Shown: positions 2,450-39,029 of the stretch, piece by piece | Layout of the letters: each line of letters starts with the position of its first letter | Numbering within the stretch: the stretch's first letter is position 1 | Assembly (NCBI RefSeq): GCF_902713425.1 | Contig: NC_081214.1 | Coordinates: forward strand, 10,880,641 to 10,944,640 | Length of the DNA: 64,000 bases | Direction of reading: 5' to 3' | From: Acipenser ruthenus | Lineage: Eukaryota | Made by a program: the position numbers and the translations under genes | The notes under the pieces: model-generated | Databases searched by the model: none | What the model was told of the DNA's origin: nothing | Seen by the model: the letters and a program-made list of their open reading frames with translations, nothing else

Positions 2450-2668
2450 ACTATTATTAATTTCTTAGCAGACACCCTTATCCAGGGCGACAATTGTTAC
2501 AAGATATCACATTATTTTTACATACAATTACCCATTTATACAGTTGGGTTTTTACTGGAGCAATCTAGGTAAAGTACCTTGCTCAAGGGTACAGCAGCAG
2601 TGTCCACCACCTGGGATTGAACCCACGACCCTCCGGTCAAGAGTCCAGAGCCCTAACCACTACTCCAC
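2450..2668 (-). mobile_element. tRNA-derived SINE, family A (conserved tail gtcgccctggataagggtgtctgctaag + (AAT)n), copy A1
   Basis: The reverse complement carries a tRNA-like head (tagtggttagggctctggactcttgaccggagggtcgtgggttcaatccc, A and B boxes) and the conserved fish SINE 3' domain; it is about 95% identical to the copy at 7661-7925. Confidence 0.85.
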
Positions 2669-5101
2669 ACTGCTGCCTAATGTGCTGAAACAACCTAATG
2701 TGCTGCTAGGGTGCAATTTTAGAGTTAGTCAGGGATAATGTAGCTGCCCCTCCCAGTATACCCTGATGGCATTTGAGCACGAAAATAAGGAAGTTATAAT
2801 CCCACCCACCCAGAACCGCCAAAGCCGTCAGTTTGACTGCCTTTTACAATACATGTTTTTATTTTGAATATAACCTACAATAGTCTATTTTATTTTTAAA
2901 TACACGCCTGTTGTTATCTCTACTGGACCTGGCAGCCATCAATTCCTTTGTTTTGTACAAGGAATGCCCTGGGTAAAATATCAGTAGGAGAGATTTCATC
3001 TTGAAGCTAGCCACAGCGCTTCAGCAGAAACATTTTGATCAGCTCAACCTGGACTCTGTGCTGCACCGAGTGACACACACGCAAGAGAAAACATGTTACT
3101 TTCGTTTTAAGTTTTGTACGTACATATACCTGTTTACACACTAGTTTCTTTTGAAATGTTTATTTTATTATAGTTTTTCATTTTTTGAAGCACTGCTTTA
3201 TATGTGTTTATAAGTTAGAAAATAAACTTATGTTTAATTTAAATACGGCGTTTCGGCTTTGAAGATGTTTGATATGATGTGCTTGAATAAAACTTTGGAG
3301 TTGTATCCAATAGTTTGTCTTTCATTTTAATATTGATGTTGTTTAAAATGTACTGTGATAATGGCTGCCGGCAGTGGTTTTAGGTATGAGTATAACCGCG
3401 GCAGTTCTAGTGTTAAACTCATTCCATTGAAAGCCAGAATAACAACAATTAAAAAAAAAACACTGACTACTGTATCTTCATAGGACACAAGCTATGACTA
3501 ATGTGCATAACATATACTGTATGATTTTTCACACCCTGATTACAAAGCGAAATCTGTGCCATTAACAAATACAAAATGAACAGGACTGTATAATAGTTTG
3601 ACTCAGAGTAGTGAACCATTATAGTTGGTCGTGTACAAGTACGGTATCAGTAGTATAAATACATATTTACATTAATAAGGACACTGCAGATCGTTTCAGA
3701 TTTTTGGTGGATTAATCGTCTCCTGTACGCTTAAAAAGGGTGCGAGTTCTGTGGGGTATTTATACTTGCAAGCACTTTTTACACAGCCTGCTACATTGAT
3801 TTTAGTAAAATAACTATAACTCCTCCCGTTTGAACAACCTTGTGTGAACAATCAGTTAACATCAGAGCATAACTCCAAACCACGTGCAGTTTAGCAGCGC
3901 TCTGACAAAACGCATGACTGTCTTTAAAGCCTCTTTAAATCCAGAGTTCCCTGCTTTTTTGTTTAATGCATTTTCTGCTTTCTTTCGCCACCTGTTGGAT
4001 AGACTAATGAAGCGCAGATAATTCAATGCTGTCAGAAAAAAAAAGGATTTCAAACCTGCAACATTTTTGCTTTATCTCATGACAGGTGAATAGCTGGCTT
4101 TGGCTACCACTGTATGTACAAACTGAACACAGTTACAATGCTTCTGTGCATAAACATATCACTCCTGGGAAAATATTCAAATATTCAAACATGCCTGAAA
4201 TGTAATCCAAGATGACCATGTTTATATTACATATAACAGTATTTATAAATGACTATCAAAAAAGATGCAAAGGAAACCAATGCATACATGATTCAATAAC
4301 ACCCATCCCATTCAACTGCACAGAAGAGGGCTTCTCACCTTTCTGCAGTATGTCATTTGATTAATTTTACTCCTGAGAGTACAAATTATAGAATATTCGT
4401 TACAATTCTGAAAGACTATCTGAGCATGAAAATATTTTTTTAAGGCTTGGTATATTCTTTAGGAGGAGGTAAACGAACTGGAAAGACAACAAGGCATTGA
4501 TTCTTATGATGTAGAAGGCACAGAAGGGTTAACTATTGGCTCATTCTAGCTCAAGTCTATGGAATTGTTGAAATAAACCATGGACACTGATTCCAGGGAG
4601 AAATCTAGGTCTTTCAAGTGGCTCACGTGAGGCCCCTACCCTAGGTTAAAACTCAGCTGTGTTTCAAAATGTACTATAGCAATGCCCAAACAAACTGGAC
4701 TTAAAGTAAGCATGGGCTTGAAACCTGATACAGTCTCCTGTATGAATCAAATATGCTTTAACAAATCATGTATTTCTCTATGCAAATAAACCGTGTTGTT
4801 GTATTGCTCTTGGAGGGCACCGCATTGTGATTGAACCATTCATTTATATAGGAGGTGGGTCAGCGATATTCTGTTTAATTTAGTCAGCCATGGCGGGACC
4901 ACAGTGACAAAGAGTACAAATCCCTACTCCCTGATAGTGGCCCGCTCTGCACTCTGAGGGTAAGGTTTAGGAATAAAGGAGTGGTTGCTTTTTGTGTTCG
5001 GGCTTCACAACTGAGGAACTCTGCCGATCATGTCGTAGGTTAGCCCACAGTGGCTACTTTTAAATCAAGGCTTAAGGCTTATGTCATGGTTATTTTAACT
5101 G

Positions 5102-9068: not shown

Positions 9069-9659
9069 TTGCATGCATTTTCATCTTGTCTGTCACTATC
9101 TTCTTTTCTTTTGGAATTGGAAATGGAATACTGTTTGAATGTACCTGAAGTTTATAGATAAGCTTCAAGTTCATGTTTGTGGATGTTGTTTTTCACTTTG
9201 ATAGAAGCCGTGATCTGGATTATAGAGCCGGTGTAGTGTTAGAAAGTGTTACATTGTCAGAATGTGGTATGTGTACCACAACTTGTAATAGCAGAAAGTG
9301 GTACGATGTCAGATTGCACTGTTGTGCACTGTTATATTTTGGTAAATGTGCAATCAATTGTGATCTGATGGGTGTTTTCCTTTTGTCTAAAGAGGTACAT
9401 TTACCATTAATTATACTTTATTTTTTGCAAACTTAAACTGGCAACAGACAATTAATTTCTTTAAAATGAAAAACAATTCACGAGAAGTCCACTGCAAAGT
9501 TGCACAAGTAAATAAAAATGTACAAGAACCAATGTATTGGATATGATAAATATTTATCATATGCTATTTTCTCAATGGTGGAAAATATGATAAATTACAT
9601 TAAAAATGACGTAAAAGACTAGAAAATCTGAGAAATTCAATTTAAAAAATGTAGAAGAC

Positions 9660-11340
9660 TAAAAACAGCATAACCTACCATATTTGAATGGGTGCTTCCC
9701 TGGTTTCAGTCTGGGAAGGCAGAGAAGTCCGCGGATCCTGGTCGGACCACTGGACGTCCCTGCATATAAACATGCTGGAGCTGCAGGCGGTCTCCCTTGC
9801 TCTCCACCATTTCCTCCCAGTGCTATGAGGTACACATGTGTTGGTATGGACGGACAACGTAACAGTGATGGCATATGTCAACCACCAGGATGGCCTACGA
9901 TCCCCGAGGTTGCATCGCATGGCCTTCAGGCTTTTGATGTGGGCTCAGAGGAACTTGCTGTCCCTGCGAGTGACGCACATTCCCGGAGCGGTGAACTGGG
10001 CAGCGGACCTCCTCTTGAGGGAGGATCCCCTTTCATCAGAGTGGCGACTCCACCCTCAGGTAGTGGAGCGCATTTGGGAACGATTCGCAGGTCGATCTCT
10101 TTGCCTTGGTGGAGACGACACACTGCCCCCTGTGGTATTCCCTCCATCGCTTAGGCGGTCCACTCACGAATGGCCCAAAACGTTTTTGTATGCTTTCCCG
10201 CCAATACCGCTGCTCCCGGCCTTTCTCGAAAAAATCTGGTTAGAGGAGGCGTCAGTTCTCCTAATGGCCCCCAGTTGGCCAAGGATAATCTGGTTCTCGA
10301 CCCTCTGCGCATGGATCTCCTGAGTCAGACGAGAGGCACTGTTTGGCACCTGGAACCGGGCAGGTTCCGGCTATGGGTCTGGCCCATGAAAGGGACCGCT
10401 GGTTAGCCCTAGGGCTATTAGATGCGGTTGTGGGTACTTTGCAGAACGCTAGGGCAGACTCCACTAGGTCTTTGTACACCTACAAGTGGAGGTATTTTCA
10501 AGCTTGGTGTCATGACCCAATCTCTTGCCCTATGCCGGTTATCTTACAGTTTCTGCATGAACTGCTTGATGCTGGTAGGTCACCTTCCACTTTGAAGGTG
10601 TATTTAGCGGCTATTTCTGATTCGGTGTCTCCAGGTGCGCATTTCTTGGCTACCCGATTTCTTAAAGATACTCTGCGATTACGCCCTCCCAGGAGACTGT
10701 TCTCCCCGAATGGAGCCTTGATATTGTACTGGAGGTTTTCACAAAGGCCCCGTTTGAGCCCATATACTCTATAGAGTTGAAGCATCTGTCTATGAAGACA
10801 GCCTTCCTCGTGGCTATCACCTCCGCTAAGCGGGTCAGTGAGCTGCAGACGCTGTCTGTGCACAGCTCCTGCATGCGCATTTGGGAGGATGGCAGCAGGG
10901 TGTCTCTGCGCACCAACACTGCTTTCCTCTCTAAGGTGATCACAGCCTTCCACATTAATCAGTCTGTGGAACTGGAGTCCTTCCATCCACCCCTGTTAGC
11001 TTCTACGGAGGATGAGAGATTGAGATTGGTCCCTCATATGCTGCCGTTCCTTCTCCCTTGCAATGGCTCTAGTATACATTATCCCATACATAATGTCTTT
11101 GGTGGTCGTCTTTGAATTGAAAATTGAATTGAATTGAATGTTAGGTTACTTACCGTAACCCTGGTTTTAATCCCTCTGTGGACGGGACCGAGAGCGTCAT
11201 CCCAGGAAGGGGCCTATCGGCAACTCTGGTATAGAGAGCTCAGCAATTACCTACCCAATGGGCAGGCATATCCTATACATAATGTTGTTGGTGGTCGTCT
11301 CTTTTAGGGAACCAGGGTTACGGTAAGTAACCTAATGTTT
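9660..11340 (+). mobile_element. DIRS-like (tyrosine-recombinase) retrotransposon, 5'-truncated: RNase H, YR domain and terminal inverted-repeat (ICR-like) structure
   Basis: ORFs 9838-10323 (RNase H: TDNVTVMAYVNHQ...HIPGAVNWAADLL; then YAFPP...LLMAPSWP), 10343-10774 (YR core-binding: STRSLYTYKWRYFQAWC) and 10777-11115 (YR catalytic: ITSAKRVSELQ). Exact 23-bp inverted arms ggttacttaccgtaaccctggtt at 11143-11165 and aaccagggttacggtaagtaacc at 11311-11333, each preceded by a catacataatgt(c/t)t(t/g)ttggtggtcgtct direct repeat. Confidence 0.75.
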
Positions 11341-12477
11341 TATTAATGTATTTCTACAGTGCTTAAAAATCTTACAACACAGTTTAAAGTAGTAAAGACA
11401 AATAAGTATTTACTTGTTTACCATGCTGACATAATTTACTTCTTATAGAACTTAATGCAAAAGATGAAAAGCAAACTTGGTCTGCAATAGTTGCAGATGG
11501 GTTTGTGGGTGTTTACCAGTTGGATTTGTGTTGGAGGTGTTTACGCTGCAACCTAACTCGCTTCCAATTTCTTATTCTTATTCTTACTATGATTGGCTGC
11601 AAAGACAACAGGGCTAACCAGTGATTGGATAATGTTTTGTTGGGTGGGTTTTTATTGTTAGTAACTGTAATATGATTTGCACAATAGAAAATAAAAAAGG
11701 ACTTGTCGTTAATATCTCAGGTCACGGAGCCCAAACGTTCGACTCTGCGTCATACAAATTGTTTTACCCAAAAAGCAAGACAAATAGTTTACTGGGTGAA
11801 TTATCACTGCTAACACAGTGCAGGTGTATTTAATTACCAAGTCAGTTGTAAATATGTTTTTATAGAAATTACATTACAAGACAGGTACTTCACAGGATAT
11901 TATTGTTAAAAACCTGTCCCACTAAACACAATACATAAAATAGGCTAAAATCAGGGACGTTTCTCTACAGTGAGGAATGAAAACTAAAATAAACAAACAA
12001 AGCCCTACTCTACAGAACGCCAGGCTGTCGGGGATTACACCGTATACCAAGCCTGTGTGTCACTTTACAAGCAGCTGGTCACAGTAAACTTGCTTAGTTT
12101 TGAACAGTACATTTCACTAGTCACTTCCTTTAAATAATCACTGCCAACAACCAGCTACAGCTGTAGCTAAATTACCAAATATTATATCCAAATCGGTTTA
12201 CTCACGCCCTCTCATAATTCTGAGAATACTTTGACAACTACTCGTAGATCTCACAAAGGCTGGTTTACAATCGTACACTTGCAAAATTATAACAGCCGTC
12301 AGATTCTTTTTTGAAGAAAGTTACACAACACTAGTGCCGGTGTTCTGAAAATCGGAGCCTCCCCCCTCCAAATGGGCCTCCCGTAGCACAGGTTTTCAGA
12401 CTAGTCTGATAAGTAGTGCCACCCCTCTAAATTAGCTACCTAAATCAAACAATGGAAGGAAGTTAATTTGGAGAAAC

Positions 12478-13137
12478 AGAAATGACAGCTCCAAATGGGC
12501 TACCCTGTGTTTTGACTGAAATGTACACTGTTGCAGCAGCAAAGGTAATTCAAAATGATCTAGACAGCATTCAGAACTGGGCAGACACATGGCAAATGAC
12601 ATTTAATATAGAAAAGTGTAAGGTACTGCACGCAGGCAATAGAAATGTGCATTATAAATACCATATGGGAGACACTGAAATTCAAGAAGGAATCTATGAA
12701 AAAGATCTAGGAGTTTATGTTGACTCAGAAATGTCTTCATCTAGACAATATGAAAATAAAAAAAGGCTAACAAAATGCTCTGACATATTGTGAGAAGTGT
12801 TGAATTTAAATCAAGGGAAGTAATGTTAAAACTTTACAATGCATTAGTAAGACCTCATCTAGAATATTGTGTTCAGTTGTGGTCACCTCGTTACAAAAAG
12901 GATATTGCTGCTCGAGAAAGAGTGCAAAGAAGAGCAACCAGAATTATCCCTGGTTTAAAATGCATGTCATATGCAGACAGGCTAAAACAATTGAATATTT
13001 TCAGTCTTGGACAAAGAAGACTACGTGGTGATCTGATTCAAGCATTCAAAATTCTAAAACGTATTGACAATGTTGACCCAAGGGACTTTTTCTACTTGAA
13101 AAAAGAAACAAGTGGAGATTAGATAAAGGGGCATTGT
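12478..13137 (+). mobile_element. CR1-like LINE fragment (RT C-terminal region)
   Basis: ORFs 12482-12793 and 12790-13122 encode VIQNDLDSIQNWADTWQM.FN..KCKVLH and LRPHLEYCVQLWSP...RRATRIIPGL...RLRGDLIQAFKI. These are about 85-90% identical to the reference copy at 31230-31850. Confidence 0.85.
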
Positions 13138-13485
13138 CTAGATGAAGATATTTCTGAGTCAACATAAACTCCTAGGTCTTTTTAATAGATTCCTTCTTCA
13201 ATTTCAGTATCTCCCATATGGTATTTATAATGCACATTTTTATTGACTGCATGCAGTACCTTACTCTATTAAATGTAATTTGCCATGTGTCTTTCCAGTT
13301 CTGAATTCTGTCTAGATCATTTTGGATGACCTTTACTGCTTTTTTTTGTGTCGTCTGCAAATTTTACAAGTTTGCTTACTATACCAGAATTCAAGTCATT
13401 AATGTAGATTAGGAATAGCAGAGGACCTAATACTGATCCCTGTGGTACACCACTGGTTACCTCACTCCATTTTGAGGTTTCACCT
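13138..13485 (-). mobile_element. CR1-like LINE, inverted copy, part 1 (interrupted by the LTR element insertion)
   Basis: Reverse complement of the CR1 RT region (ORF 13172-13360 minus: [22 protein letters not shown]). It abuts the plus-strand CR1 fragment at about 13137, an inverted junction. Confidence 0.8.
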
Positions 13486-13930
13486 TGTGACGGGGTACTG
13501 CCCCGTCTTTATGATAATGGTTGGGACTGGCAGGGAGGGGGTTAAAATTCCTCCCTGCCAGGAAAACATGTGAGAATGTGGCTGGAGCCCTAATTGACTA
13601 ATTAGCAATTATTGATTCATTGGGCTCCAGCCACAGGGGATAAAAGCCAGGGGAGAGGCCCTGGCTAGTAGGAGAGAGAGTAGGAGAAAGAGAGTTCCAG
13701 AAGAGGAGTGTTTTGTTTGTGCTGTGTCTTTGTAAGTTTTTGGTTCCAGTGAAGGCAACGCCCAGCCTGGAAACTTTATTTTGTAAGTTTTGTTTTGTGT
13801 TTGTATTTTGTGTTTGAAACCTTTTTGTTTGGCCCTCGTGCTGGTTTATTTTGTATTTTTGTTTATTAAAACTTTATTTTTGAACTTTAAAACTGTCTCT
13901 GAGTCTCAAACCTCGGTCCATCCTGTCACA
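13486..13930 (+). repeat. 5' LTR (445 bp, TGTGACGG...CCTGTCACA)
   Basis: Direct repeat of 15830-16274; TG...CA termini. Confidence 0.85.
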
Positions 13931-14027
13931 GTTGGTGGTCAGAAGTAGGATAGCGCCACCTGGAGGCTCAGAGCAGTAATTTTTTTTTTTTCTTGAATTT
14001 TGGGAGTTTTTTTTTTTTTTTTGGAAA

Positions 14028-14195
14028 ATGGGGAAGAGCAGACAGCGGCAAAGGCAGGAGAAGCAGCAGCCGAAGAAATGTAGGCTGCTGCAACAACAGC
14101 CACCCCAGCTGGAGGACCCAGCCAGTCTTTTCCCCTGGTGCTCCTGGTGCGGGAAGGAGGATCATCGGTGGAGGTCCTGTCCAGATGGGCTACCA
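14028..14195 (+). pseudogene. gag/nucleocapsid remnant with CCHC zinc knuckle (C-X2-C-X4-H-X4-C at 14139-14180)
   Basis: MGKSRQRQRQEKQQPKKCRLL...PWCSWCGKEDHRWRSCP; runs directly into the 36-bp repeat array. Confidence 0.6.
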
Positions 14196-15360
14196 GAGAC
14201 GAGCTGCCGTTCCCGCCTCCGCCAGCAGAGGGAGACGAGCTGCCGTTCCCGCCTCCGCCAGCAGAGGGAGACGAGCTGCCGTTCCCGCCTCCGCCAGCAG
14301 AGGGAGACGAGCTGCCGTTCCCGCCTCCGCCAGCAGAGGGAGACGAGCTGCCGTTCCCGCCTCCGCCAGCAGAGGGAGACGAGCTGCCGTTCCCGCCTCC
14401 GCCACTAGAGGGAGAGGGGCCGCCGTTCCCGCCTCCGCCAGCAGAGGGAGACGAGTTGCCGTTTCTGCCACTAGAGGGAGAGGGGCCGCCGTTCCCGCCT
14501 CCGCCACTAGAGGGAGAGGGGCCGCCGTTCCCGCCTCCGCCAGCAGAGGGAGACGAGCTGCCGTTCCCGCCTCCGCCAGCAGAGGGAGACGAGCTGCCGT
14601 TCCCGCCTCCGCCAGCAGAGGGAGACGAGCTGCCGTTCCCGCCTCCGCCAGCAGAGGGAGACGAGCTGCCGTTCCCGCCTCCGCCAGCAGAGGGAGACAA
14701 GCTGCCGTTCCCGCCTCCGCCAGCAGAGGGAGACGAGTTGCCGTTCCCGCCTCCACCAGCAGAGGGAGACGAGCCGCCGTTCCCGCCTCCGCCAGCAGAG
14801 GGAGACGAGCCGCCGTTCCCGCCTCCGCCAGCAGAGGGAGACGAGCCGCCGTTCCCGCCTCCGCCAGCAGAGGGAGCCGGGCTGCCGTTCCCGTCTCCGC
14901 CAGCAGAGGGAGCCGGGCCGCCGTTCCCGTCTCCGCCAGCAGAGGGAGCCGGGCCGCCGTTCCCGCCTCCGCCAGCAGATGGAGACGAGCCGCCGTTCCC
15001 GCCTCCGCCAGCAGAGGGAGACGAGCCGCCGTTCCCGCCTCCGCCAGCAGAGGGAGCCGGGCCGCCGTTCCCGCCTCCGCCAGCAGAGGGAGCCGGGCCG
15101 CGGTTCCCGCCTCCGCCAGCAGAGGGAGCCGGGCCGCGGTTCCCGCCTCCGCCAGCAGAGGGAGCCGGGCCGCCGTTCCCGTCTCCGCCAGCAGAGGGAG
15201 CCGGGCCGCCGTTCCCGTCTCCGCCAGCAGAGGGAGCCGGGCCGCCGTTCCCGTCTCCGCCAGCAGAGGGAGCCGGGCCGCCGTTCCCGTCTCCGCCACC
15301 AGAGGGAGCCGGGCCGCCGTTCCTGCCTCCGCCACCAGAGGGAGCCGGGCCGCCGTTCCC
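14195..15360 (+). repeat. 36-bp minisatellite (about 32 copies; unit about gagacgagctgccgttcccgcctccgccagcagagg) inside the LTR element
   Basis: Highly homogeneous tandem array. It is open in several frames (GDELPFPPPPAE / RRAAVPASASRG), so the 381-626-aa track ORFs across it are low-complexity artefacts. Confidence 0.95.
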
Positions 15361-15366
15361 GTCTCC

Positions 15367-15516
15367 GCCTCCCGAGGGTCCGCTGCTGCTGCCGTCGCCT
15401 CCCGAGGGTCCGCTGCTGCTGCCGTCGCCTCCCGAGGGTCCGCTGCTGCTGCCGTCGCCTCCCGAGGGTCCGCTGCTGCTGCCGTCGCCTCCCGAGGGTC
15501 CGCTGCTGCTGCCGTC
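15367..15516 (+). repeat. 30-bp minisatellite x5 (cctcccgagggtccgctgctgctgccgtcg)
   Basis: Direct reading; adjacent to the 36-bp array. Confidence 0.95.
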
Positions 15517-15817
15517 GCCTGGGGTTGCCAGGGATCCTGCTTCGCCTGGGGTCGCTACACTATGGCCGGAGCCCCACGGAGGGGAGTTGCTGACCATGAA
15601 GAGGGGGAGGGAGGTCAGGAGACCAGCTCCCCCAGCGGCACTGTCGCGGCAAGATAGTGTGTGGCCGGAGCCCCGGAAGAGGGAGCTGCTGGCCACGAAG
15701 AATTGGGTGGTGCCGGACGTCCCACCATGGCCACCCCCATGGACACTGTGCTTCCCCCTCTTCCGGGACTGAGACTGAGGGGGGAGGTGGCCATTTAGGC
15801 CATGTTGTGCTTGGCAC

Positions 15818-15829
15818 AAGGGGGGGATA
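15818..15829 (+). promoter_or_regulatory. Polypurine tract (aagggggggata) of the LTR element
   Basis: Purine run immediately upstream of the 3' LTR start TGTGACGG. Confidence 0.6.
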
Positions 15830-16274
15830 TGTGACGGGGTACTGCCCCGTCTTTATGATAATGGTTGGGACTGGCAGGGAGGGGGTTAAAATTCCTCCCT
15901 GCCAGGAAAACATGTGAGAATGTGGCTGGAGCCCTAATTGACTAATTAGCAATTATTGATTCATTGGGCTCCAGCCACAGGGGATAAAAGCCAGGGGAGA
16001 GGCCCTGGCTAGTAGGAGAGAGAGTAGGAGAAAGAGAGTTCCAGAAGAGGAGTGTTTTGTTTGTGCTGTGTCTTTGTAAGTTTTTGGTTCCAGTGAAGGC
16101 AACGCCCAGTCTGGAAACTTTATTTTGTAAGTTTTGTTTTGTGTTTGTATTTTGTGTTTGAAACCTTTTTGTTTGGCCCTCGTGCTGGTTTATTTTGTAT
16201 TTTTGTTTATTAAAACTTTATTTTTGAACTTTAAAACTGTCTCTGAGTCTCAAACCTCGGTCCATCCTGTCACA
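15830..16274 (+). repeat. 3' LTR (445 bp)
   Basis: Direct repeat of 13486-13930. Confidence 0.85.
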
Positions 16275-18118
16275 CACCTCTAATCAGTACTTTCTGTTTT
16301 CTGCATGTTAACCACTCCCTAATCCATGTGCATGCATTTCCTTGAATCCCTATTGCGTTCAGTTTGATTAATCTTTTAATGCGGGACTTTGTCAAAAGCT
16401 TTCTGGAAATCTAAATAAACCATGTCATATGCTTTGCAATTATCCATTGTTGATGTTGCATCCTCAAAAAAATCAAGCAGTTTAGTTAGACACGATCTCC
16501 CTTTCCTAAAACCATGCTGACTTTCCCAGGATACTGTTACCATATAGGTAATTTTCCATTTTAGATCTTTATTATAGTTTCCATATGTTCACATATAATA
16601 GAAGTCAGGCTTATTGGTCTGTACTTACCTGGTTCGGTTTTGTCTCCCTTTTTGTGGATTGGTATTACGTTTGCAATTCTCCAGTCTGTCGGTACAACCC
16701 CTGTCTCAAGAGACTGTTGTATGATCTTGGTTAGTGGTTTAGAAATAACTTCTTTCATTTCTTTCAGTAATTTTGGGAGGATCTCATCTGGCCCAGGGGA
16801 TTTGTTTATTTTAAGAGCTCATAGTCCCTTTAATACTTCTGCCTGTGTTATGCTAAAGTTATTTAAAACTGGATAGGAACAGGTTGACATTGGGGCATGT
16901 TGTCCGTATCCTCCTTTGTAAAAACTTGTGAAAAGTAATCATTTAATATATTTGCTATTTTTTTCTCTTGGTCTATGATTTTGCCATTTATATCTCTTAG
17001 ACATTTAACCTCCACTTTGAATGTTCTCTTGCTGTTATAATATTGGAAAAACTTTGTGGAATTGGTTTTATGCCCCCTAGCAATGTTCATTTCTATCTCT
17101 CTTTTGGCCTTTATAACTTCCTTTTTGACTTGTGTTTGCAGTTCCAAGTACTCTTTCTGTGTACTTTGTTCTTGGTCCCTTTTAAACGCTCTGTAAAATG
17201 CCTTTTTTCGCTGAATATTGTTTTAATTGATCTATTAAACCATTTTGGCCATTTTGTTTCAGATTTAGATTGGTCTACTTTTGGGATGTAATTGTTTTGC
17301 GCCACTAGTACTACATTTTTAAAAAACAGCCATCCTTTTTCTGTGGATGTTTTCTCTATTTACTCCAATCTACTTCTGTTAGTCTCTGTTTCATACCTTT
17401 ATAATTTGCCTTGTTTTTTGGGGGTTTTTAAAATCACTTAAAATGAGACCATGTTGTGGTCTGAGTTTGCCAATGGTTCTCTGACCTCTGTTTTAGTTAT
17501 TCTGTCTTTGTTATTAGAAAAGACTAAATCTAGTCGGTGCCTTGACAAATTGTGTTAGGAAGCAGTCGTGCCCCCCATCGGGTTTTCCCATTTTATACGG
17601 GGGAAGTTGAAATCCCCCATTAGTATGGCTTCTCCTTTTCTACACGTATTTCTAATGTCATTGTATAAGATTATTTTGCTCGGTGTCTGAATTTGGCGAT
17701 CTATAGCATGCTTCTATTATTATGCCCTTTGAATTTTTGTCCATTATTCTGACCCATATTGATTCAGCGTTGTTTTCTTCGTCTAGATTTAACACTTGGG
17801 CTTCAAGACTATTTCTTATGTATAGCGCTACCCCTCTGCCTCTTCTGTCCTGCCTGTCTTTCCTATATAGTGTGTACCCACTAATATTATATTCGTCTCC
17901 ATTACTCTCAGATAACCAAGTTTCTGTAACACCTATCACATCGTAGTTACTTGTTAGTACAGTAGCTTCAAGTTCTAACATTTTGTTTCTAATACTTTTA
18001 GCATTTAGATAAATACATTTAATGGCTGTCTTACCTGAGTTGTTGCCCTTGTTTTGATGTGGTCTCCCTTCTGTTTTTTTGTTGATTTCACCCCCCTTCA
18101 TTTATAGTTTAAATGTCA
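16275..18118 (-). mobile_element. CR1-like LINE, inverted copy, part 2 (APE endonuclease and RT N-terminal regions)
   Basis: Minus ORFs 17658-18101 (APE: NKKTEGRPHQNKGNN...IGVTETWLSESNGDEYNISGY...ALYIRNSLE) and 16561-16758 (RT: VVPTDWRIANVIPIHKKGDKTEPGKYRPISLTSI). It continues the 13138-13485 segment across the LTR insertion. Confidence 0.85.
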
Positions 18119-21924: not shown

Positions 21925-24806
21925 TCTGATACTGCGCTACGCTGCCTGTGTGTAGAGTTCTGATACTGCGCTACCCTGCCTTTGTGAAGAGTTCTGATAC
22001 TGTGCTACGCTGCCTGTGTGAAGAGTTTTGATACTGCGCTGCCTGTGTGTAGAGTTCTGATACTGCGCTACCCTGCCTGTGTGAAGAGTTCTGATACTGC
22101 GCTACCCTGCCTGTATGAAGAGTTCTGATACTGCGCTACGCTGCCTGTGTGTAGAGTTCTGATACTGCGCTACGCTGCCTGTGTGAAGAGTTCTGATACT
22201 GCGCTACCCTGCCTGTATGAAGAGTTCTGATACTGCGCTACCCTGCCTGTATGAAGAGTTCTGATACTGCGCTACGCTGCCTGTGTGTAGAGTTCTGATA
22301 CTGCGCTACGCTGCCTGTGTGAAGAGTTCTGATACTGCGCTACCCTGCCTGTATGAAGAGTTCTAATACTGTGCTACGCTGCCTGTGTGAAGAGTTCTGA
22401 TACTGCGCTGCCTGTGTGAAGAGTTCTGATACTGCGCTACGCTGCCTGTGTGTAGAGTTCTGATACTGCGCAACGCTGCCTGTGTGAAGAGTTCTGATAC
22501 TGCGCTACCCTGCCTGTATGAAGAGTTCTGATACTGCGCTACGCTGCCTGTGTGTAGAGTTCTGATACTACGCTGCCTGTGTGTAGAGTTCTGATACTGC
22601 GCTACCCTGCCTTTGTGAAGAGTTCTGATACTGTGCTACGCTGCCTGTGTGAAGAGTTTTGATACTGCGCTGCCTGTGTGTAGAGTTCTGATACTGCGCT
22701 ACGCTGCCTGTGTGAAGAGTTCTGATACTGCGCTACCCTGCCTGTATGAAGAGTTCTAATACTGCGCTACGCTGCCTGTGTGAAGAGTTCTGATACTGCG
22801 CTGCCTGTGTGAAGAGTTCTGATACTGCGCTACCCTGCCTTTGTGAAGAGTTCTGATACTGTGCTACGCTGCCTGTGTGAAGAGTTTTGATACTGCGCTG
22901 CCTGTGTGTAGAGTTCTGATACTGCGCTACGCTGCCTGTGTGAAGAGTTCTGATACTGCGCTACCCTGCCTGTATGAAGAGTTCTGATACTGCGCTACGC
23001 TGCCTGTGTGAAGAGTTCTGATACTGCGCTACGCTGCCTGTGTGTAGAGTTCTGATACTACGCTGCCTGTGTGTAGAGTTCTGATACTGCGCTACCCTGC
23101 CTTTGTGTAGAGTTCTGATACTGTGCTACGCTGCCTGTGTGAAGAGTTTTGATACTGCGCTGCCTGTGTGTAGAGTTCTGATACTGCGCTACGCTGCCTG
23201 TGTGAAGAGTTCTGATACTGCGCTACCCTGCCTGTATGAAGAGTTCTAATACTGCGCTACGCTGCCTGTGTGAAGAGTTCTGATACTGCGCTGCCTGTGT
23301 GAAGAGTTCTGATACTGCGCTACCCTGCCTGTATGAAGAGTTCTGATACTGCGCTACGCTGCCTGTGTGTAGAGTTCTGATACTACGCTGCCTGTGTGTA
23401 GAGTTCTGATACTGCGCTACCCTGCCTTTGTGAAGAGTTCTGATACTGTGCTACGCTGCCTGTGTGAAGAGTTTTGATACTGCGCTGCCTGTGTGTAGAG
23501 TTCTGATACTGCGCTACGCTGCCTGTGTGAAGAGTTCTGATACTGCGCTACCCTGCCTGTATGAAGAGTTCTAATACTGCGCTACGCTGCCTGTGTGAAG
23601 AGTTCTGATACTGCGCTGCCTGTGTGAAGAGTTCTGATACTGCGCTACCCTGCCTTTGTGAAGAGTTCTGATACTGTGCTACGCTGCCTGTGTGAAGAGT
23701 TTTGATACTGCGCTGCCTGTGTGTAGAGTTCTGATACTGCGCTACGCTGCCTGTGTGAAGAGTTCTGATACTGCGCTACCCTGCCTGTATGAAGAGTTCT
23801 AATACTGCGCTACGCTGCCTGTGTGAAGAGTTCTGATACTGCGCTGCCTGTGTGAAGAGTTCTGATACTGCGCTACCCTGCCTGTATGAAGAGTTCTGAT
23901 ACTGCGCTACGCTGCCTGTGTGTAGAGTTCTGATACTGCGCTACCCTGCCTGTATGAAGAGTTCTGATACTGCGCTACACTGCCTGTGTGGAGTTCTGAT
24001 ACTGTGCTATGCTGCCTGTGTGAAGAGTTCTGATACTGCGCTGCCTGTGTGAAGAGTTCTGATACTGCGCTACGCTGCCTGTGTGTAGAGTTCTGATACT
24101 GCGCAACGCTGCCTGTGTGAAGAGTTCTGATACTGCGCTACCCTGCCTGTATGAAGAGTTCTGATACTGCGCTACGCTGCCTGTGTGAAGAGTTCTGATA
24201 CTGCGCTACACTGCCTGTGTGAAGAGTTCTGATACTGCGCTACGCTGCCTGTGTGTAGAGTTCTGATACTGCGCAACGCTGCCTGTGTGTAGAGTTCTGA
24301 TACTGCACAACGCTGCCTGTGTGAAGAGTTCTGAAACTGCGCTACGCTGCCTGTGTGAAGAGTTCTAATACTGCGCTACGCTGCCTGTGTGAAGAGTTCT
24401 GATACTGCGCTACGCTGCCTGTGTGGAGTTCTGATACTGCGCTGCCTTTGTGAAGAGTTCTGATACTGCGCTACGCTGCCTGTGTGTAGAGTTCTGATAC
24501 TGCGCTACGCTGCCTGTGTGAAGAGTTCTAATACTGCGCTACGCTGCCTGTGTGGAGTTCTGATACTGCGCTACGCTGCCTGTATGAAGAGTTCTGATCC
24601 TGCGCTGCCTTTGTGAAGAGTTCTGATACTGCGCTACGCTGCCTGTGTGGAGTTCTGATACTGCGCTACGCTGCCTGTGTGAAGAGTTCTGATACTGCAC
24701 TACGCTGCCTGTATGAAGAGTTCTGATACTGCGCTGCCTGTATGAAGAGTTCTGATACTGTGCTGCCTGTATGAAGAGTTCTGATACTGCGCTACACTGC
24801 CTGTAT
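21925..24806. repeat. 34-bp minisatellite/satellite array, about 2.9 kb, about 85 units (ctgatactgcgctacgctgcctgtgtg[t/a]agagtt) with 30-bp deleted-unit variants
   Basis: Direct reading; recurring multi-unit blocks suggest higher-order periodicity. Confidence 0.95.
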
Positions 24807-25584
24807 GGTTTTGTGACACCGACGCCATTTTGTACGCATTATGGGAGCTTTAACAGGAGGACGGGGCTCGAGGTTAATCCAAAGTGCTGGAATGCGGAAG
24901 TAACTTTTTTATGATGAGTGACCATAATAAAGACATGAAGTTTTATAATATAATAATCAATTGAAATTGTGCAGTTTATTAATCGTTGGAAGTCAGTTTC
25001 GGTATTTAATTTAAGAATCGGTAATTAACCGTATTTTTGATTAATCGCTCATCACTAGCGCCCGTAAAATTTGGAGTACAAACATGCAGAATTACAAACG
25101 TCGATTCCATTTACACTCTACATATCGTAATGCTTTTTATATTTTTGCCAACATACAATTGCCATTGTTATTGCAAATGTATGGATTTTAGTACTGATTA
25201 ATTCTATATTAGAAATATTAATTAATATTTGGAGATATGAATTTGGTTTGCAATACAATCCACAGAGAGCTTGTTTGTTTTGATGCAGTATTTACAGGTA
25301 GGGTACTCTACTTTGATGCAATGTTTACAGGGAGGGTACCCTATTAGTGGTTGGTTGTGTGGGAAAGGAGGAAACACTGCCTAATTTAGGAAAGCCACAA
25401 GAACAACCTGTGCTTTAGGCCAATGATTACCAGCTGTATATTTTCATGTATAAAGAAAGGAATAATCCCATTAAAAGGAAGAAATGGTGAACATACTTGA
25501 AAATAAATGCTAGTCAGTTAACCCCACAATTTCTTTTGCAGGTGATGTAGAAGTGGAAAGACTTGATATTTGCCCCCACTTCAG

Positions 25585-28642: not shown

Positions 28643-29057
28643 ATTGATCAGACTCCTTCTCTTCTTGTATGTGCTGAGCAGTATTGATCAGACTTCTTCT
28701 CTTCTTGTATGTGCTGAGCAGTATTGATCAGACTCATCCTCTTCTTGTATGTGCTTAGCAGTATTGATCAGACTCATCCTCTTGTATGTGCTGAGCGGTA
28801 TTGATCAGACTCCTTCTCTTCTTGTATGTGCTGAGCAGTATTGATCAGACTCCTTCTCTTCTTGTATGTACTGAGCAGTATTGATCAGACTCCTTCTCTT
28901 CTTGTATGTGCTGAGCAGTATTGATCAGACTCATCCTCTTCTTGTATCTGCTGAGCAGTATTGATCAGACTCCTTCTCTTCTTGTATGTGCTGAGCAGTA
29001 TTGATCAGACTCCTTCTCTTCTTGTATGTGCTGAGCAGTATTGATCAGACTCCTTCT
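28643..29057. repeat. 40-bp minisatellite (cagtattgatcagactccttctcttcttgtatgtgctgag), 5' part; split by the CR1 insertion
   Basis: About 10 tandem units; the same array resumes at 32091. Confidence 0.95.
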
Positions 29058-29789: not shown

Positions 29790-30450
29790 CACAATTTGTC
29801 AAGGCACCGAGTAGAGGGGAGGCATGCCTTGATTTAGTCTTTTCAAATAATGAAGACAGAATAACTAAAACAGAGGTCAGAGAGCCATTGGCAAACTCAG
29901 ACCACAACATGGTCTAATTTGAAATATTTTTAAAAACCCCAAAAGTAATGACTAAAGCTAAGGTTTACAATTTTAGAAAAGCAAACTATGAAGGTATGAA
30001 ATGGAGACTAACAGAAGTAGATTGGAGTAAAATAGAGAAAACATCCACAGAAAAAGGATGGCTGTTTTTTAAAAATGTAGTACTAGAGGCACAAAACAAT
30101 TACATCCCAAAAGTAGACAAATCTAAATCTAAAACAAAATGGCCAAAATGGTTTAATAGATCAATTAAAAAAATATTCAGCATAAAAAGGCACTTTACAG
30201 AGCATTTAAAAGGGACCAAAAACAAAGTACACAGAAAGAGTACTTGGAACTGCAAACACAAGTCAAAAAGGAAGTTAGAAAGGCCAAGAGAGAGAGATAG
30301 AAATCAATATTGCTAAGGGGGCTAAAACCAATTCGAAAATATTTTTCCAATATTATAACAGCAAGAGAACATTCAAAGAGGAGGTTAAATGTCTAAGAGA
30401 CACAAATGGCAAAATCATAGATGAAGAAAAAAAAATAGCAAATATATTAA

Positions 30451-31842
30451 ATGATTACTTTTCACAGGTTTTTACAAAGGAGGACACGGACAACATGCCC
30501 GACATGTCGACATGTCGGTCTAGGAGCTCTTAAAATAAACAAATCCCCTGGGCCAGATGAGATCCTCCCAATAGTACTCAAAGAAATGAAAGAAGTTATT
30601 TACAAACCGCTAACCAAGATCATGCAACAGTCTCTTGACACAGGGGTTGTACCGACAGACTGGAAAATAGCAAACGTAATTCCGATCCACAAAAAGGGAG
30701 ACAAAACCGAACCAGGTAACTACAGACCAATAAGCCTGACTTCTATTATATGTAAACTTATGGAAACTATAATAAGATCCAAAATGGAAAATTACCTGTA
30801 TGGTAACAATATCCTGGGAGACAGCCAGCATGGTTTTAGGAAAGGGAGATCGTGTCTAACTAACCTACTGGACTTTTTTGAGGATGCAACATTGAAAATG
30901 GATAACTGCAAAGCATACAACATGGTTTATTTAGATTTCCAGAAAGCTTTTGACAAAGTCCCGCACAAAAGATTAATTCTCAAACTGAACGCAGTAGGGA
31001 TTCAAGGAAATGCATGCACATGGATTAGGGAGTGGTTAACAGGTAGAAAACAGAAAGTACTGATTAGAGGAGAAACCTCAAAATGGAGTGAGGTAACCAG
31101 TGGTGTACCACAGGGATCAGTATTAGGTCCTCTGCTATTCCTAATCTACATTAATGATTTAGATTCTGGTATAGTAAGCAAACTCGTTAAATTTGCAGAC
31201 GACACAAAAATAGGAGGAGTGGCAAACACTGCTGAAGCAGCAAAGGTCATTCAAAATGATCTAGACAGCATTCAGAATTGGGCAGACACATGGCAAATTA
31301 AATTTAATAGAGAAAAGTGTAAAGTATTGCATGCGGGCAATAAAAATGTGCATTATAAATATCATATGGGAGATAGTGAAATTGAAGAAGGGAACCATGA
31401 AAAAGGCCTAGGAGTTTATGTTGACTCAGAAATGTCTTCATCTAGACAATGTGGGGAAGCTATAGAAAAGGCTAACAAGATGCTTGGATATATTGTGAGA
31501 AGTGATGAATTTAAATCAACAGAAGTAATGTTAAAACTCTACAATGCATTAGTAAGACCTCACCTAGAATATTGTGTTCAGTTCTGGTCACCTCGTTACA
31601 AAAAGGATATTGCTGCTCTAGAAAGAAAGAGAGTGCAAAGAAGAGCAACCAGAATTATCCCGGGTTTAAAAGGCATGTCGTATGCAGACAGGCTAAAAGA
31701 ATTGAGTCTATTCAGTCTTGAACAAAGAAGACTACGCGGTGATCTGATTCAAACATTCAAAATCCTAAACGGTATAGACAATATCAACCCAGGGGACTTC
31801 TTTGACCTGAAAAAAGAAACAAGGACCAGGGGTCACAAATAG
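30451..31842 (+). pseudogene. CR1 ORF2 reverse transcriptase domain, 463-aa open segment
   Basis: RT motifs as above; the upstream in-frame region is interrupted. Confidence 0.85.
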
Positions 31843-35761: not shown

Positions 35762-37338
35762 TACTGTGCAAAAGTTTTAGGCAGGTGTGAAAAAATGCTG
35801 TAAAGTAAGAATGCTTTCAAAAATAGACATGTTAATAGATTATATTTATCAATTAACTAAATGCAAAGTGAGTGAACAGAAGAAAAATCTAAATCAAATC
35901 CATATTTGGTGTGACCACCCTTTGCCTTCAAAACAGCATCAATTCTTCTAGGTACATTTGCACAAAGTCAGGGATTTTGTAGGCATATAGTCAGGTGTAT
36001 GATTAAACAATTATACCAAACAGGTGCTAATGATCATCAATTCAATATGTAGGTTGAAACACAATCATTAACTGAAACAGAAACAGCTGTGTAGAAGGAA
36101 TAAAACTGGGTGAGGAACAGCCAAACTCAGCTAACAAGGTGAGGTTGCTGAAGACAGTTTACTGTCAAAAGCCATATACCATGGCAAGACTGAGCACAGC
36201 AACAAGACACAAGGTAGTTATGCTGCATCAGCAAGGTCTCTCCCAGGCAGAAATTTCAAGGCAGACGGGGGTTTCCAGATGTGCTGTCCAAGCTCTTTTG
36301 AAGAAGCACAAAGAAACGGGCAACGTTGAGGACTGTAGACGCAGTGGTCTGCCAAGGAAACTTACTGCAGCAGATGAAAGACACATCATGCTTACTTCCC
36401 TTCGCAATCGGAAGATGTCCAGCAGTGCCATCAGCTCAGAATTGGCAGAAAACAGGGGACCCTGGTACACCCATCTACTGTCCGGAGAAGTCTGGTCAGA
36501 AGTGGCCTTCATGGAAGACTTGCTGCCAAAAAGCCATACCTCCGACGTGGAAACAAGGCCAAGCGACTCAACTATGCACGAAAACACAGGAACTGGGGTG
36601 CAGCAAAGTGGCAGCAGGTGCTCTGGACTGATGAGTCAAAATTTGAAATATTTGGCTGTAGCAGAAGGCAGTTTGTTCGCCGAAGGGCTGGAGAGCACTA
36701 CACGAATGAGTGTCTGCAGGCAACAGTGAAGCATGGTGGAGGTTCCTTGCAAGTTTGGGGCTGCATTTCTGCAAATGGAGTTGGGGATTTGGTCAGAATT
36801 AATGGTCTCCTCAATGCTGAGAAGTACAGGCAGATACTTATCCATCATGCAATACCATCAGGGAGGCATCTGATTGGCCCCAAATTTATTCTGCAGCATG
36901 ACAACGACCCCAAACATACAGCAAAAGTCATTAAGAACTATCTTCAGCGTAAAGAAGAACAAGGAGTCCTGGAAGTGATGGTATGGCCCCCACAGAGTCC
37001 TGATCTCAACATCATCGAGTCTGTCTGGGATTACATGAAGAGAAAGAAGCAACTGAGGCTGCCTAAATCCACAGAAGAACTGTGGTTAGTTCTCCAAGAT
37101 GTTTGGGCCAACCTACCTGTCGAGTTCCTTCAAAAACTGTGTGCAAGTGTACCTAGAAGAATTGATGCCGTTTTGAAGGCAAAGGGTGGTCACACCAAAT
37201 ATTGATTTGATGTAGATTTTTCTTCTGTTCACTCACTTTGCATTTTGTTAATTGATAAATATAAACTATTAACATGTCTATTTTTGAAAGCATTCTTACT
37301 TTACAGCATTTTTTCACACCTGCCTAAAACTTTTGCAC

Positions 37339-37420: not shown

Positions 37421-39029
37421 TGCCTTGCAAAAGTATTCAGACCCCTGACCAATTCTCTCATATTACTGAATTACAAATGGTACATTGAAATTTCGTTCTG
37501 TTTGTTATTTTATTTTAAAACACTGAAACTCCAAAATCAATTATTGTAAGGTGACATTGGTTTTATGTTGGGAAATATTTTTAAGAAAAATAAAAAAAAC
37601 TGAAATATCTTGCTTGCATAAGTATTCAACCCCTGTGCTGTGGAAGCTCCCAGTTTACACCAATGAAAGAAATTGCCCTAATGAGGACACAATTACCTTA
37701 CCATTGGCCTCCACCTGTGAACCATTAAAGTTGCTGTCACATTTTCTGGATAAAAACCCCACTGTTGAAGGATCATTGGTCAGGCTGTGAATCTGAAGGA
37801 AAATGAAGACCAAAGAGCATTCTACAGAAGTTAGAGATAAAATAATACAAATGCATAGATTAGGGAAAGGGTACAAAATAATATCCAAGTGTTTGGATAT
37901 CCCAGTGAGCACAGTTGGATCAGTAATCAGGAAGTGGAAGCTGCATCACACCACCCAGGCACTGCCAAGAAAAGGCCGTCCATCAAAGCTCAGCGCTCAA
38001 ACAAGAAGGAGACTTGTGAGAGAAGCCACAGAGAGGCCAACAATCACTTTGAAGGAGCTACAGAGTTCAGTGGCTGGGAGTGGAATAATGGTGCACCAGT
38101 CAACCATATAAAGAGCTCTGCATAACACTGGCCTATATGGGAGGGTGGCAAGAAAGAAGCCGTTACTCAAAAAGTACCATCTGAAAGCACGTCTGGAGTT
38201 TGCCAGAAAGCATGAGAGTGACCCAGCTGCGATGTGGGAAAAGGTTTTGTGGTCAGATGAGACCAAGATAGAGCTTTTTGGCCAAAACTCAAAGTGCTAT
38301 GTGTGGCGCAAACCTAACACTGCCCATGCCTCAAGACACACCATCCCTACTGTGAAGTATGGTGGTGGCAGCATCATGCTGTGGGGATGCTTCTCATCAG
38401 CAGGGACTGGGCATCTTGTTAAAATTGAAGGAAGAATGGATGGAGCAACATACAGGGAAATACTGCAAGAGAACCTGCTTCAGTCTGCTAAAAAACTGAA
38501 GCTTGGGAGGAAATTCACCTTTCAGCAGGACAATGATCCCAAGCACAAGGCCAAAGCAACATTGGAGTGGCTGAAGAACAAAAAGGTGAATGTCCTACAG
38601 TGGCCCAGTCAAAGTCCTGATCTCAATCCCATTGAGAATCTGTGGCACTATTTGAAAATTGCGGTCCACAAGTGTCGTCCAACCAACATGAACAACCTGG
38701 AGCAAATCTGCCAAGATGAATGGGCCAAAATCACTCCGACACTGTGTGCAAAGCTGGTACATACTTACCCCAAAAGACTTAAAACTGTTATTGCAACGAA
38801 AGGTGGCTCTACCAAATATTAATGTGTGGGGGTTGAATACTTATGCAAGCAAGATATTTCAGTTTTTTATTTTTCTTAAATATTTCCCAACATAAAACCA
38901 ATGTCACCTTACAATAATTGATTTTGAGTTTCAGTGTTTTAAAATAAAATATCAAACAGAAGGAAATTTCAATGTACCATTTGTAGTTCAGTAATATGAG
39001 AAAATTGGTCAGGGGTCTTTTGCAAGGCA

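Follow-up and report, generated by a model that had tools for sequence, protein, structure and literature searches.

A very probable recent and defective copy of an acipenseriform long terminal repeat retrotransposon family without replication enzymes of its own in Acipenser ruthenus

Introduction

The 64,000-nucleotide (nt) stretch of Acipenser ruthenus DNA analysed here (RefSeq assembly GCF_902713425.1, contig NC_081214.1, positions 10,880,641 to 10,944,640 of the forward strand; hereafter the window) contains, at positions 13486 to 16274, an element bounded by long terminal repeats (LTRs) and inserted into a fragment of a long interspersed nuclear element (LINE). An earlier inspection of the letters alone (the sequence-only reading) had described this feature as a very young, non-autonomous LTR retroelement, mobilised in trans, with an interior made up of a gag zinc-knuckle remnant and an expanded 36-bp minisatellite that could seed minisatellites around the genome. 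In the follow-up presented here, the element was compared with its relatives and with known classes of non-autonomous elements. Unless a locus is named, coordinates are positions within the window; L001 to L008 are numbered acipenseriform comparison loci, and P-numbers denote database protein models. Relatives at the DNA level came from A. sinensis (GCA_050626445.1) as well as one Polyodon contig. We conclude that the window feature is very probably a recent, defective copy from an acipenseriform family of LTR retrotransposons that encodes none of the enzymes for its replication.

Results

Anatomy of the element and its insertion site

13086-13485, minus strand: host LINE fragment left of the insertion (paralogue comparison)
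13481-13485, plus strand: left target-site duplication (TSD) CACCT (direct reading)
13486-13930, plus strand: 5' LTR, 445 bp, TGTGAC...GTCACA (aligned to the 3' LTR)
13865-13870, plus strand: putative polyadenylation signal ATTAAA in the R/U5 region of the LTR, its role suggested by position only
13933-13951, plus strand: primer-binding site (PBS) TGGTGGTCAGAAGTAGGAT, 2 nt after the 5' LTR
13980-14027, plus strand: T-rich 5' untranslated leader; T-rich leaders lie at the equivalent site in L002, L003 and L008
15818-15827, plus strand: polypurine tract (PPT) AAGGGGGGGA, two bases upstream of the 3' LTR
15830-16274, plus strand: 3' LTR, 445 bp (aligned to the 5' LTR)
16275-16279, plus strand: right TSD CACCT (direct reading)
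16280-16956, minus strand: host LINE fragment right of the insertion (paralogue comparison)

The sequence-only reading had reported 445-bp LTRs with TG...CA ends that differ at one position in the segments compared, a 5-bp TSD, a PPT and an interior without pol, and closer analysis bore out each of these points. Read directly from the sequence, the element measures 2789 bp with an interior of ~1.90 kb; full-length, base-by-base alignment of the two LTRs gave 444 identical positions out of 445, the sole difference being C13776 versus T16120, and the 5' LTR shares 82-93% identity with the LTRs of A. sinensis relatives. Purine-rich tracts occupy the position equivalent to the PPT in L001, L002, L003, and L008. 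No Pfam family match to reverse transcriptase (RT), integrase (IN), protease (PR) or Gag was found in any frame of the interior, which is wholly explained by an untranslated region (UTR), a 56-codon stub of the open reading frame (ORF) that we call ORF1, tandem arrays and a 309-bp 3' unique part. The element carries all the marks of an LTR retrotransposon (TG...CA direct repeats, a TSD in the 4-6 bp range, a PBS, and a PPT) and encodes none of the enzymes that would make it autonomous (protease, RT/RNase H, and integrase). Within the 64-kb window, no second copy of the LTR or of the interior was found.

Evidence that the flanking 5-mers arose by insertion comes from copies of the host LINE. 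When fused with a single CACCT, the flanks of the element are collinear over 788 bp, at 89%, with a second copy of the LINE in the window (31451-30666), which at the would-be junction reads GGTTTCTCCTCTAATC and has the 5-mer once only. This paralogue, at 30451-31842, encodes a 463-aa ORF with an RVT_1 domain, and the element therefore sits antisense inside the LINE fragment. Another uninterrupted LINE copy, at L005 4778-5117, is 94-95% identical to both flanks; L005 was considered as an orthologous empty site and rejected, as collinearity ends at the LINE borders and the copy is a paralogue. Because both paralogous LINE copies are uninterrupted and have the 5-mer singly, CACCT is a true TSD. 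The LINE fragment also has an inverted duplication just upstream of the insertion (12535-12749 versus 13133-13340), with arms of 157 nt and 83 nt that are 88-89% complementary.

That the direct repeats were instead produced by segmental duplication or recombination, with no transposition at all, is extremely improbable. Nothing was found in support of such an origin, which is refuted by the empty-site alignments with their single 5-bp site in two paralogous LINE copies; furthermore, the repeats end exactly at TG...CA, PBS and PPT adjoin them, and relatives at unrelated loci have 5-bp duplications of their own (ATGAC and GTGCC). Many LTR mismatches, an unduplicated target site or a larger segmental duplication would each speak against an insertion, and on all three points the result favours the element.

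An acipenseriform family with a single ORF

L001, 27264-30627: family element with an LTR unalignable to that of the window element by BLAST, a 3' unique part shared with the window element, and arrays with periods of 39, 27, and 99 bp
L002, 9497-12117: element of 2.6 kb, 412-bp LTRs at 97%, TSD ATGAC
L003, 9306-12839: LTRs 86-93% like those of the window element, TSD GTGCC; interrupted by N-gaps and an assembly duplication
L005, ~9494-12224: family element; in addition, a solo LTR of the window element's LTR family at 3168-3591, minus strand
L006 (paddlefish), 28702-28920: ORF1 fragment, 73% amino-acid identity
L008, 8001-12349: window-like 3' architecture, with 36-bp array (6.8 copies), 30-bp array (3.1 copies), 3' unique part, PPT, and LTR

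Five complete relatives were recovered, each 2.6-3.5 kb long with a single ORF1 and none with pol; across the family, LTRs measure 410-630 bp and are accompanied by a tRNA-Leu-type PBS, a PPT, and 5-bp TSDs. In L002, ORF1 runs in one frame from the ATG (10001) to the 3' LTR, comprising 568 codons with a single CGA-to-TGA stop. Its product begins with a basic N-terminus, two CCHC knuckles, and a conserved segment (SQEIWDWLMHPE...NYLAVDMG), after which come the repeats (REPEGEELxS)n from a 30-bp array, (EPERPQPxREE)n, and (GPPFPPPPPPEGA)n from the 36-bp array, followed by a C-terminal unique part. The tail of Pro/Glu-rich in-frame repeats is probably disordered.

With regard to distribution, a search with the 544-aa frame-2 ORF of the window element returned 44 proteins, 42 of them from A. 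sinensis or A. ruthenus, the other two being JGI and NCBI records. A profile of the ~170 N-terminal residues of ORF1 returned 77 proteins, 89-315 aa in length, which apart from a single ENA record come from A. sinensis, A. ruthenus, and Polyodon spathula; RT, IN or PR domains were present in none of these 77. As far as the databases show, the family appears to be confined to sturgeons and paddlefish (Acipenser, Polyodon) and to be multicopy there. The literature on sturgeon non-autonomous LTR elements yielded general reviews only and no description of the family, which may already have been curated in Repbase or Dfam.

Between subfamilies, the N-terminal part of ORF1 has dN/dS values of 0.22-0.30 over 164-171 codons, and ORF1 therefore is, or recently was, a selected protein. 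In an AlphaFold model built with 30 family sequences, residues ~95-156 form a four-helix domain predicted with confidence (pLDDT 81-90). Foldseek found no match to this model in the PDB below E = 1, the weak top matches being Lin28 knuckles at an E of about 2, and a Pfam search of eight family proteins for Gag, RT, IN, and PR returned only sub-threshold knuckle models and a spurious, proline-rich formin FH1 match.

Dozens of A. sinensis gene models (marked UNVERIFIED_CONTAM) are chimeric, with ORF1 repeats fused to adenylate kinase, Ig, and kinase domains; P0003, P0006, P0015, P0016, and P0022 are among them. The A. sinensis draft has N-gaps and duplicated flanks just where the elements lie (L003 9560-9621 and 11116-11229; L007 ~10570-17460), and it seems to be their arrays that interrupt or mislead the assembly.

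The ORF1 stub, deletion, and frame shift of the window copy

14028-14195, plus strand: authentic N-terminal 56 codons of the family ORF1 (MGKSRQ...CPDGLP) (homologue search)
14028-14408, plus strand: actual ATG ORF of 126 aa, consisting of the 56 authentic residues and 70 out-of-frame array residues (RETSCRSRLRQQ)n; the stop is a TAG in a variant unit
14139-14180, plus strand: CCHC knuckle 1, CSWCGKEDHRWRSC, CX2CX4HX4C, within the ATG ORF
14138-15772, plus strand: open canonical frame (frame 2) of 544 codons, covering the arrays and the 3' unique part; frame assigned by comparison with L002

A search with the 57-aa N-terminus gave 30 cluster representatives at E <= 1e-3 (best, 4.6e-20), and in the alignment query residue 3 pairs with residue 4 of the matched proteins; the window ATG is therefore the family's conserved start. 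The C, C, H, and C residues of knuckle 1 are invariant among eight aligned family sequences. With zf-CCHC (PF00098), the window ORF had no match at E <= 1, and the relatives gave sub-threshold zf-CCHC_4 and zf-CCHC_6 matches only. The gag zinc-knuckle remnant of the sequence-only reading is a CCHC remnant; it is, however, the first of the two N-terminal ORF1 knuckles and does not stem from the C-terminus of a gag.

DNA homology to full-length relatives (L003) stops at 14195/14196, right after CPDG(L/P)P, where the 36-bp array begins; the window copy has neither knuckle 2 nor the helical domain, nor the upstream 30-bp REPEGE-type arrays. The authentic start lies in frame 0 and the canonical reading of the array (PFPPPPAEG...) in frame 2, and the canonical frame at 14138-15772 has no in-frame ATG near its start. 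Since the deletion shifts the frame from 0 to 2 and the canonical frame lacks a nearby ATG, the window copy cannot make ORF1. Openness of a frame was rejected as evidence of coding in this copy, the interior being 69% GC with five of the six frames mostly or fully open. The N-terminus of the window copy (MGKSRQRQRQEKQQPKKCRLLQQQ...) is nearest to that of the L007/L008 subfamily (MGKKSRQRQRQAMQQPKKCKLLQQQ...), and to judge from the sequences compared the copy is most likely a derivative of an L008-like progenitor in which a deletion fused codon 56 to the 36-bp repeat.

Tandem arrays within the element

14196-15369, plus strand: 36-bp array, 32.8 copies, 94% matches (Tandem Repeats Finder)
15366-15520, plus strand: 30-bp array, 5.2 copies, 100% matches, canonical reading SPPEGPLLLP (Tandem Repeats Finder)
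15521-15817, plus strand: 3' unique part of ORF1, with the canonical-frame stop TGA at 15770-15772 (homology to relatives)

Together, the two arrays account for ~1.33 kb of the 1.90-kb interior, in agreement with the 1.3 of 1.9 kb given earlier. The 36-bp array had been called homogeneous, which is accurate insofar as matches reach 94%; its 33 units nevertheless fall into 15 variants, in the order AAAAABCDBAAAAECFGGHIIJGKKLLIIIMNO. In the canonical frame these units read PFPPPPAEG(DEL/DEP/AGP), with DEL-type units toward the 5' end and AGP-type units toward the 3' end, and units of both types are also found in A. sinensis copies; one unit is only 30 bp long, and the final one, a hybrid, forms the transition to the 30-bp repeat. 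The 3' unique part holds two related blocks of ~40 nt (15563-15602 and 15662-15701) spaced 99 bp apart, and is 92-93% identical to L003 and L008 (92.5% for L008) and 86% identical to L001.

The homologous 36-bp array comprises 6-7 units in L002, L005, and L008 and a single unit in L003, as compared to 33 in the window copy. An expanded 36-bp array, as the sequence-only reading had it, is thus what comparison with the relatives shows, the family's repeat having grown to 33 units from the 1-7 seen elsewhere. The 30-bp unit is present in 2-3 copies in L003 and L008 and in one copy in L001.

The same reading took the arrays for satellite cargo, a view that did not hold. A single L002 frame spans from the ATG through (GPPFPPPPPPEGA)n, the reading of its 36-bp array, to the 3' LTR; on the evidence of that frame, both arrays (36-bp and 30-bp) are in-frame coding repeats that belong to the family itself and no captured satellite. 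Across the element interiors of L001, L002, L003, L007, L008 and the window, approximately 10 distinct array types were recognised, with periods of 27, 30, 30, 27, 36, 30, 99, 39, 27, and 42 bp; all are divisible by 3, for which the probability by chance is about (1/3)^10. Among arrays outside the elements at the same loci, 3 of 13 periods are divisible by 3, the others including 44, 50, 53, 22, 40, 71, 32, 41, and 38 bp.

As the A. sinensis relatives at L003 and L007 adjoin N-gaps and duplicated flanks exactly at their arrays, the length of the window array, and possibly the deletion as well, might be suspected to reflect long reads that were mis-collapsed or mis-expanded in assembly. We regard such an artefact as very unlikely, given that the window has no N, that both flanks and both LTRs are coherent, and that the 33 units follow a non-periodic, ordered pattern of variants, including a 30-bp short unit, unlike that of a collapsed or consensus-polished repeat.

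Seeding of minisatellites by the element found no support; the large satellite beside the L005 element is unrelated in sequence. This satellite, 6.9 kb of 50-bp units at L005 12224-19123, truncates the 3' LTR of the family element there, and was rejected as element-seeded on finding no sequence relation to the LTR or the arrays. The solo LTR at L005 (3168-3591) lies inside a 41-bp satellite (2483-3959), and the sturgeon loci sampled are generally rich in minisatellites.

Primer-binding site and U3 hairpins

PBS variant, L002: TGGTTTAAGAAGTGGGAT
PBS variant, L003: TGGTGTCAGAAACGGGAT
PBS variant, L005 and L007: TGGTGTCAGAGTGGGAT
PBS variant, L008: TGGTGTAAGAGTGGGAT
13527-13561 (3' LTR copy 15871-15905), plus strand: U3 palindrome or hairpin 1, perfect stem CTGGCAGGGAGG...CCTCCCTGCCAG, -26.5 kcal/mol, z = -5.9
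13578-13634 (3' LTR copy 15922-15978), plus strand: U3 hairpin 2, 57 nt, 13-nt arms GTGGCTGGAGCCC/GGGCTCCAGCCAC, -30.3 kcal/mol, z = -7.1

It had been proposed that the PBS be matched against tRNA 3' ends. Compared with the 3'-end complement of tRNA-Leu-CAA (TGGTGTCAGAAGTGGGAT), the window PBS has 17 of 18 matches and a 1-nt insertion, the tRNA sequence being human; human tRNA-Leu-CAA and tRNA-Leu-CAG sequences were taken from PMC10359600. The majority PBS of six copies, TGGTGTCAG(A)AGTGGGAT, equals the complement of the 18 nt at the 3' end of human tRNA-Leu-CAA (...ATCCCACTTCTGACACCA) and is one base off human tRNA-Leu-CAG. In sequence, the family PBS matches the tRNA-Leu type.

With regard to U3, palindrome 1 is also present in L003 and L008. 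Hairpin 2 has a 31-nt, AT-rich loop with TAATT motifs and ends 4 nt upstream of a TATA-like GATAAAAG at 13639-13646. The same hairpin architecture is found at the same site in the L002/L005 LTR subfamily (arms CAGGTGGG/CCCACCTG, z = -2.4, L002 ~9583-9635) and in the L001 LTR subfamily (arms GCAGTTGTACCGAGA/TCTCGGTACAACTGC, z = -9.8, L001 ~30221-30280), with arm sequences that are unrelated among the three LTR subfamilies. A shared architecture with unrelated arms amounts to covariation at the level of subfamilies, which makes the hairpin a candidate cis element, acting perhaps as a palindrome in the promoter or perhaps, within the transcript, as a stem-loop of the RNA in the 3' U3.

Mobilisation, age, and order of events

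The sequence-only reading had the element recent and mobilised in trans, and LTR identity, the TSD with its empty sites, PBS, PPT, and the relatives all agree with this; as a young LTR element without pol, it must presumably have moved in trans. We propose that the element would be transcribed from its 5' LTR and that its RNA would be reverse-transcribed and integrated in trans by the enzymes of an autonomous LTR element, while ORF1 would probably provide the family with a protein of its own for RNA binding or packaging. In the lineage of the window copy, a deletion joined codon 56, after knuckle 1, to the 36-bp repeat, at the cost of knuckle 2, the upstream arrays and the helical domain between them, and the 36-bp repeat has grown to 33 units. 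The copy inserted antisense into the LINE very recently, in keeping with one LTR difference in 445 bp, and it most probably moved when already rearranged, with enzymes and ORF1 supplied in trans. This difference corresponds to a K of ~0.2%, which would place the insertion on the order of a million years ago at typical vertebrate neutral rates, the rates being assumed and the uncertainty very wide.

As to the order of events, we consider it rather likely that the array was long and heterogeneous before insertion and that the rearranged form itself transposed. Expansion before insertion is favoured because 15 unit variants stand against one substitution in 890 bp of LTR, and because DEL-type and AGP-type units are shared with A. 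sinensis copies. It is conceivable, if somewhat doubtful, that an intact ORF1-bearing element inserted and only afterwards underwent, in place, both the deletion between knuckle 1 and the 36-bp array and the growth of that array to 33 units, through replication slippage or unequal exchange among its own repeats. The interior is built of slippage-prone repeats, every array varies widely in copy number among the relatives, the L003 LTR holds a 57-bp tandem duplication, and the junction between codon 56 and the 36-bp repeat was found in no other copy among A. sinensis gene models, all of which would suit rearrangement in place; 15 variants in ordered blocks, however, exceed what the LTR clock allows unless most of the variants were inherited, and the relatives offer at most 7 units to inherit.

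Several observations weigh against a pol-less family whose rearranged member was copied in trans. About seven relatives were read, all through gene models of a single draft annotation, and the sample is skewed toward short single-exon models; no autonomous partner was found among the A. sinensis loci and family proteins examined; and no A. sinensis gene model has the junction of the window copy, as judged by a search with the 126-aa junction-spanning ORF. Neither Pfam nor fold search recognised a capsid in ORF1, the knuckles being its sole gag-like feature. A perfect 18-nt PBS occurs in no family copy compared, and no tRNA gene was found in the window (Rfam, ARAGORN) or in the eight loci (ARAGORN), the human tRNA-Leu table being used instead. 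Finally, in the A. ruthenus gene model P0040, the sole family-like protein with an RVT_1 domain (E = 5e-11), that domain follows family repeats (PPPPAEGE... repeats and an other-frame 30-bp array), which could mean that pol-bearing members exist.

Together with the small and skewed sample, P0040 would suit a family that is not truly pol-less, in which autonomous members use ORF1 as their gag and the copies retrieved are merely the commonest deletion derivatives. We judge such a family improbable. RT, IN or PR was present in 0 of 77 ORF1-family proteins, all five complete relatives measure 2.6-3.5 kb, and L002 ORF1 extends uninterrupted up to the 3' LTR; gene models of the P0040 kind are, moreover, often chimeric, P0003 being joined to adenylate kinase and P0004 and P0049 running into unrelated sequence that by eye is DIRS-like. 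Two leads toward a pol-bearing member were followed and rejected: the ~8.5 kb between two LTR-PBS-ORF1 starts at L007 is mostly an N-gap of ~7 kb with an assembly-duplicated flank, and the tandem LTR-interior-LTR pattern at L003 is an assembly duplication with gaps.

Other features of the window

Two near-identical Tc1/mariner-type transposase copies (DDE_3), at 36139-37205 (plus strand) and 50016-51082 (minus strand), lie in opposite orientation 13 kb apart and carry the same overlapping ORF pair; a third, more distant Tc1-like ORF is at 38145-38822. Overlapping ORFs at 9684-10323 resemble a DIRS-type fragment by eye, and Pfam gave no match for 9838-10323. The region 22000-25000 has a GC content of ~0.50, and its AT skew is strongly negative (-0.20 to -0.29).

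Discussion

The comparison most pertinent to the family is with terminal-repeat retrotransposons with a GAG domain (TR-GAG), described in Coffea, Arabidopsis, and Triticeae (PMC13570524). These are short LTR elements with PBS, PPT, one structural ORF, and no pol, "semi-autonomous" and trans-mobilised; the sturgeon family fits this description, and its ORF1 is under purifying selection. LTRs, PBS, PPT, and a single ORF without pol were found for the family (L002; 77 proteins without pol domains), the ORF of the window copy being broken, whereas the recognisable GAG (capsid) that likewise defines TR-GAG elements was not found in ORF1. In the plant elements the GAG is recognisably of the Ty1 or Ty3 kind, while the sturgeon ORF1 combines CCHC knuckles with a repeat tail and a four-helix domain for which no match was found; the sturgeon host is, in addition, a vertebrate, and the window copy no longer encodes the ORF.

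The sequence-only reading had likened the element to large retrotransposon derivatives (LARD) and terminal-repeat retrotransposons in miniature (TRIM). It shares with these its LTRs, PBS, PPT, TSD, lack of enzymes, and mobilisation in trans. However, TRIM are below 1-1.5 kb and LARD above 4 kb, both with a non-coding interior (PMC13570524), and an element of 2789 bp with an ORF-derived interior falls under neither definition. As all members recovered are without pol, the element is nearer a TR-GAG-type lineage than LARD or TRIM.

Other non-autonomous elements resemble the family in part. BARE-2 of barley is a parasitic LTR element reliant on partner proteins, with its structural protein complemented in trans; it has kept pol and lacks a functional gag start, which is the reverse of the arrangement in the sturgeon family. 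MaLR elements (ORR1, MT, THE1) are mammal-specific non-autonomous partners of ERV-L, 2-3 kb in length with 350-450-bp LTRs and no pol, and the ERV-L group has a tRNA-Leu PBS and 5-bp TSDs. MaLR interiors are not known to consist of a zinc-knuckle ORF under selection. MaLR and the sturgeon family are alike in the general features of size, Leu PBS, and 5-bp TSD.

There is ample documentation of tandem arrays within LTR elements and of minisatellites to which they gave rise (PMC9659126). In the mouse, the minisatellites Ms6-hm and Hm-2 derive from MaLR LTRs, and Ogre with PisTR-A, the soybean Gmr9 minisatellite, and SVA provide examples of internal tandem arrays that vary in length between copies (PMC9659126). 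In Ogre and Gmr9 the array is in the 3' UTR of an autonomous element, whereas the sturgeon arrays are in frame within an ORF, with periods divisible by 3; SVA differs in being a non-LTR composite. It is the in-frame, ORF-embedded arrays that are unusual in the sturgeon family. The window copy is an ordinary young non-autonomous LTR insertion, and the novelty of the family to which it belongs is modest.

More speculatively, the observations may be joined into a single account, to which we attach limited confidence: a long-lived, "semi-autonomous" acipenseriform lineage without pol and capsid would have kept only a selected protein (zinc knuckles, a four-helix domain not seen before, and an evolvable in-frame repeat tail) together with the U3 hairpin beside the TATA box, and hairpin and ORF1 would serve as handles on an unrelated RT and IN, making the window copy a parasite of a parasite. 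If this account is true, a copy with a destroyed ORF1 and 99.8% identical LTRs would show that ORF1 works in trans.

At the practical level, the window insertion is useful as an insertion or variable number tandem repeat (VNTR) marker and as a warning for annotation, in view of the dozens of chimeric A. sinensis models, and the family adds to the repeats that break sturgeon assemblies. With regard to biology, the family would be a vertebrate counterpart of the plant TR-GAG elements, with a structural protein that is no recognisable Gag and a repeat domain that is variable in length yet stays in frame. It would thereby offer a natural system in which to study the minimal cis signals and trans proteins needed for copying by the enzymes of another element, as well as the evolution of coding minisatellites in mobile DNA.

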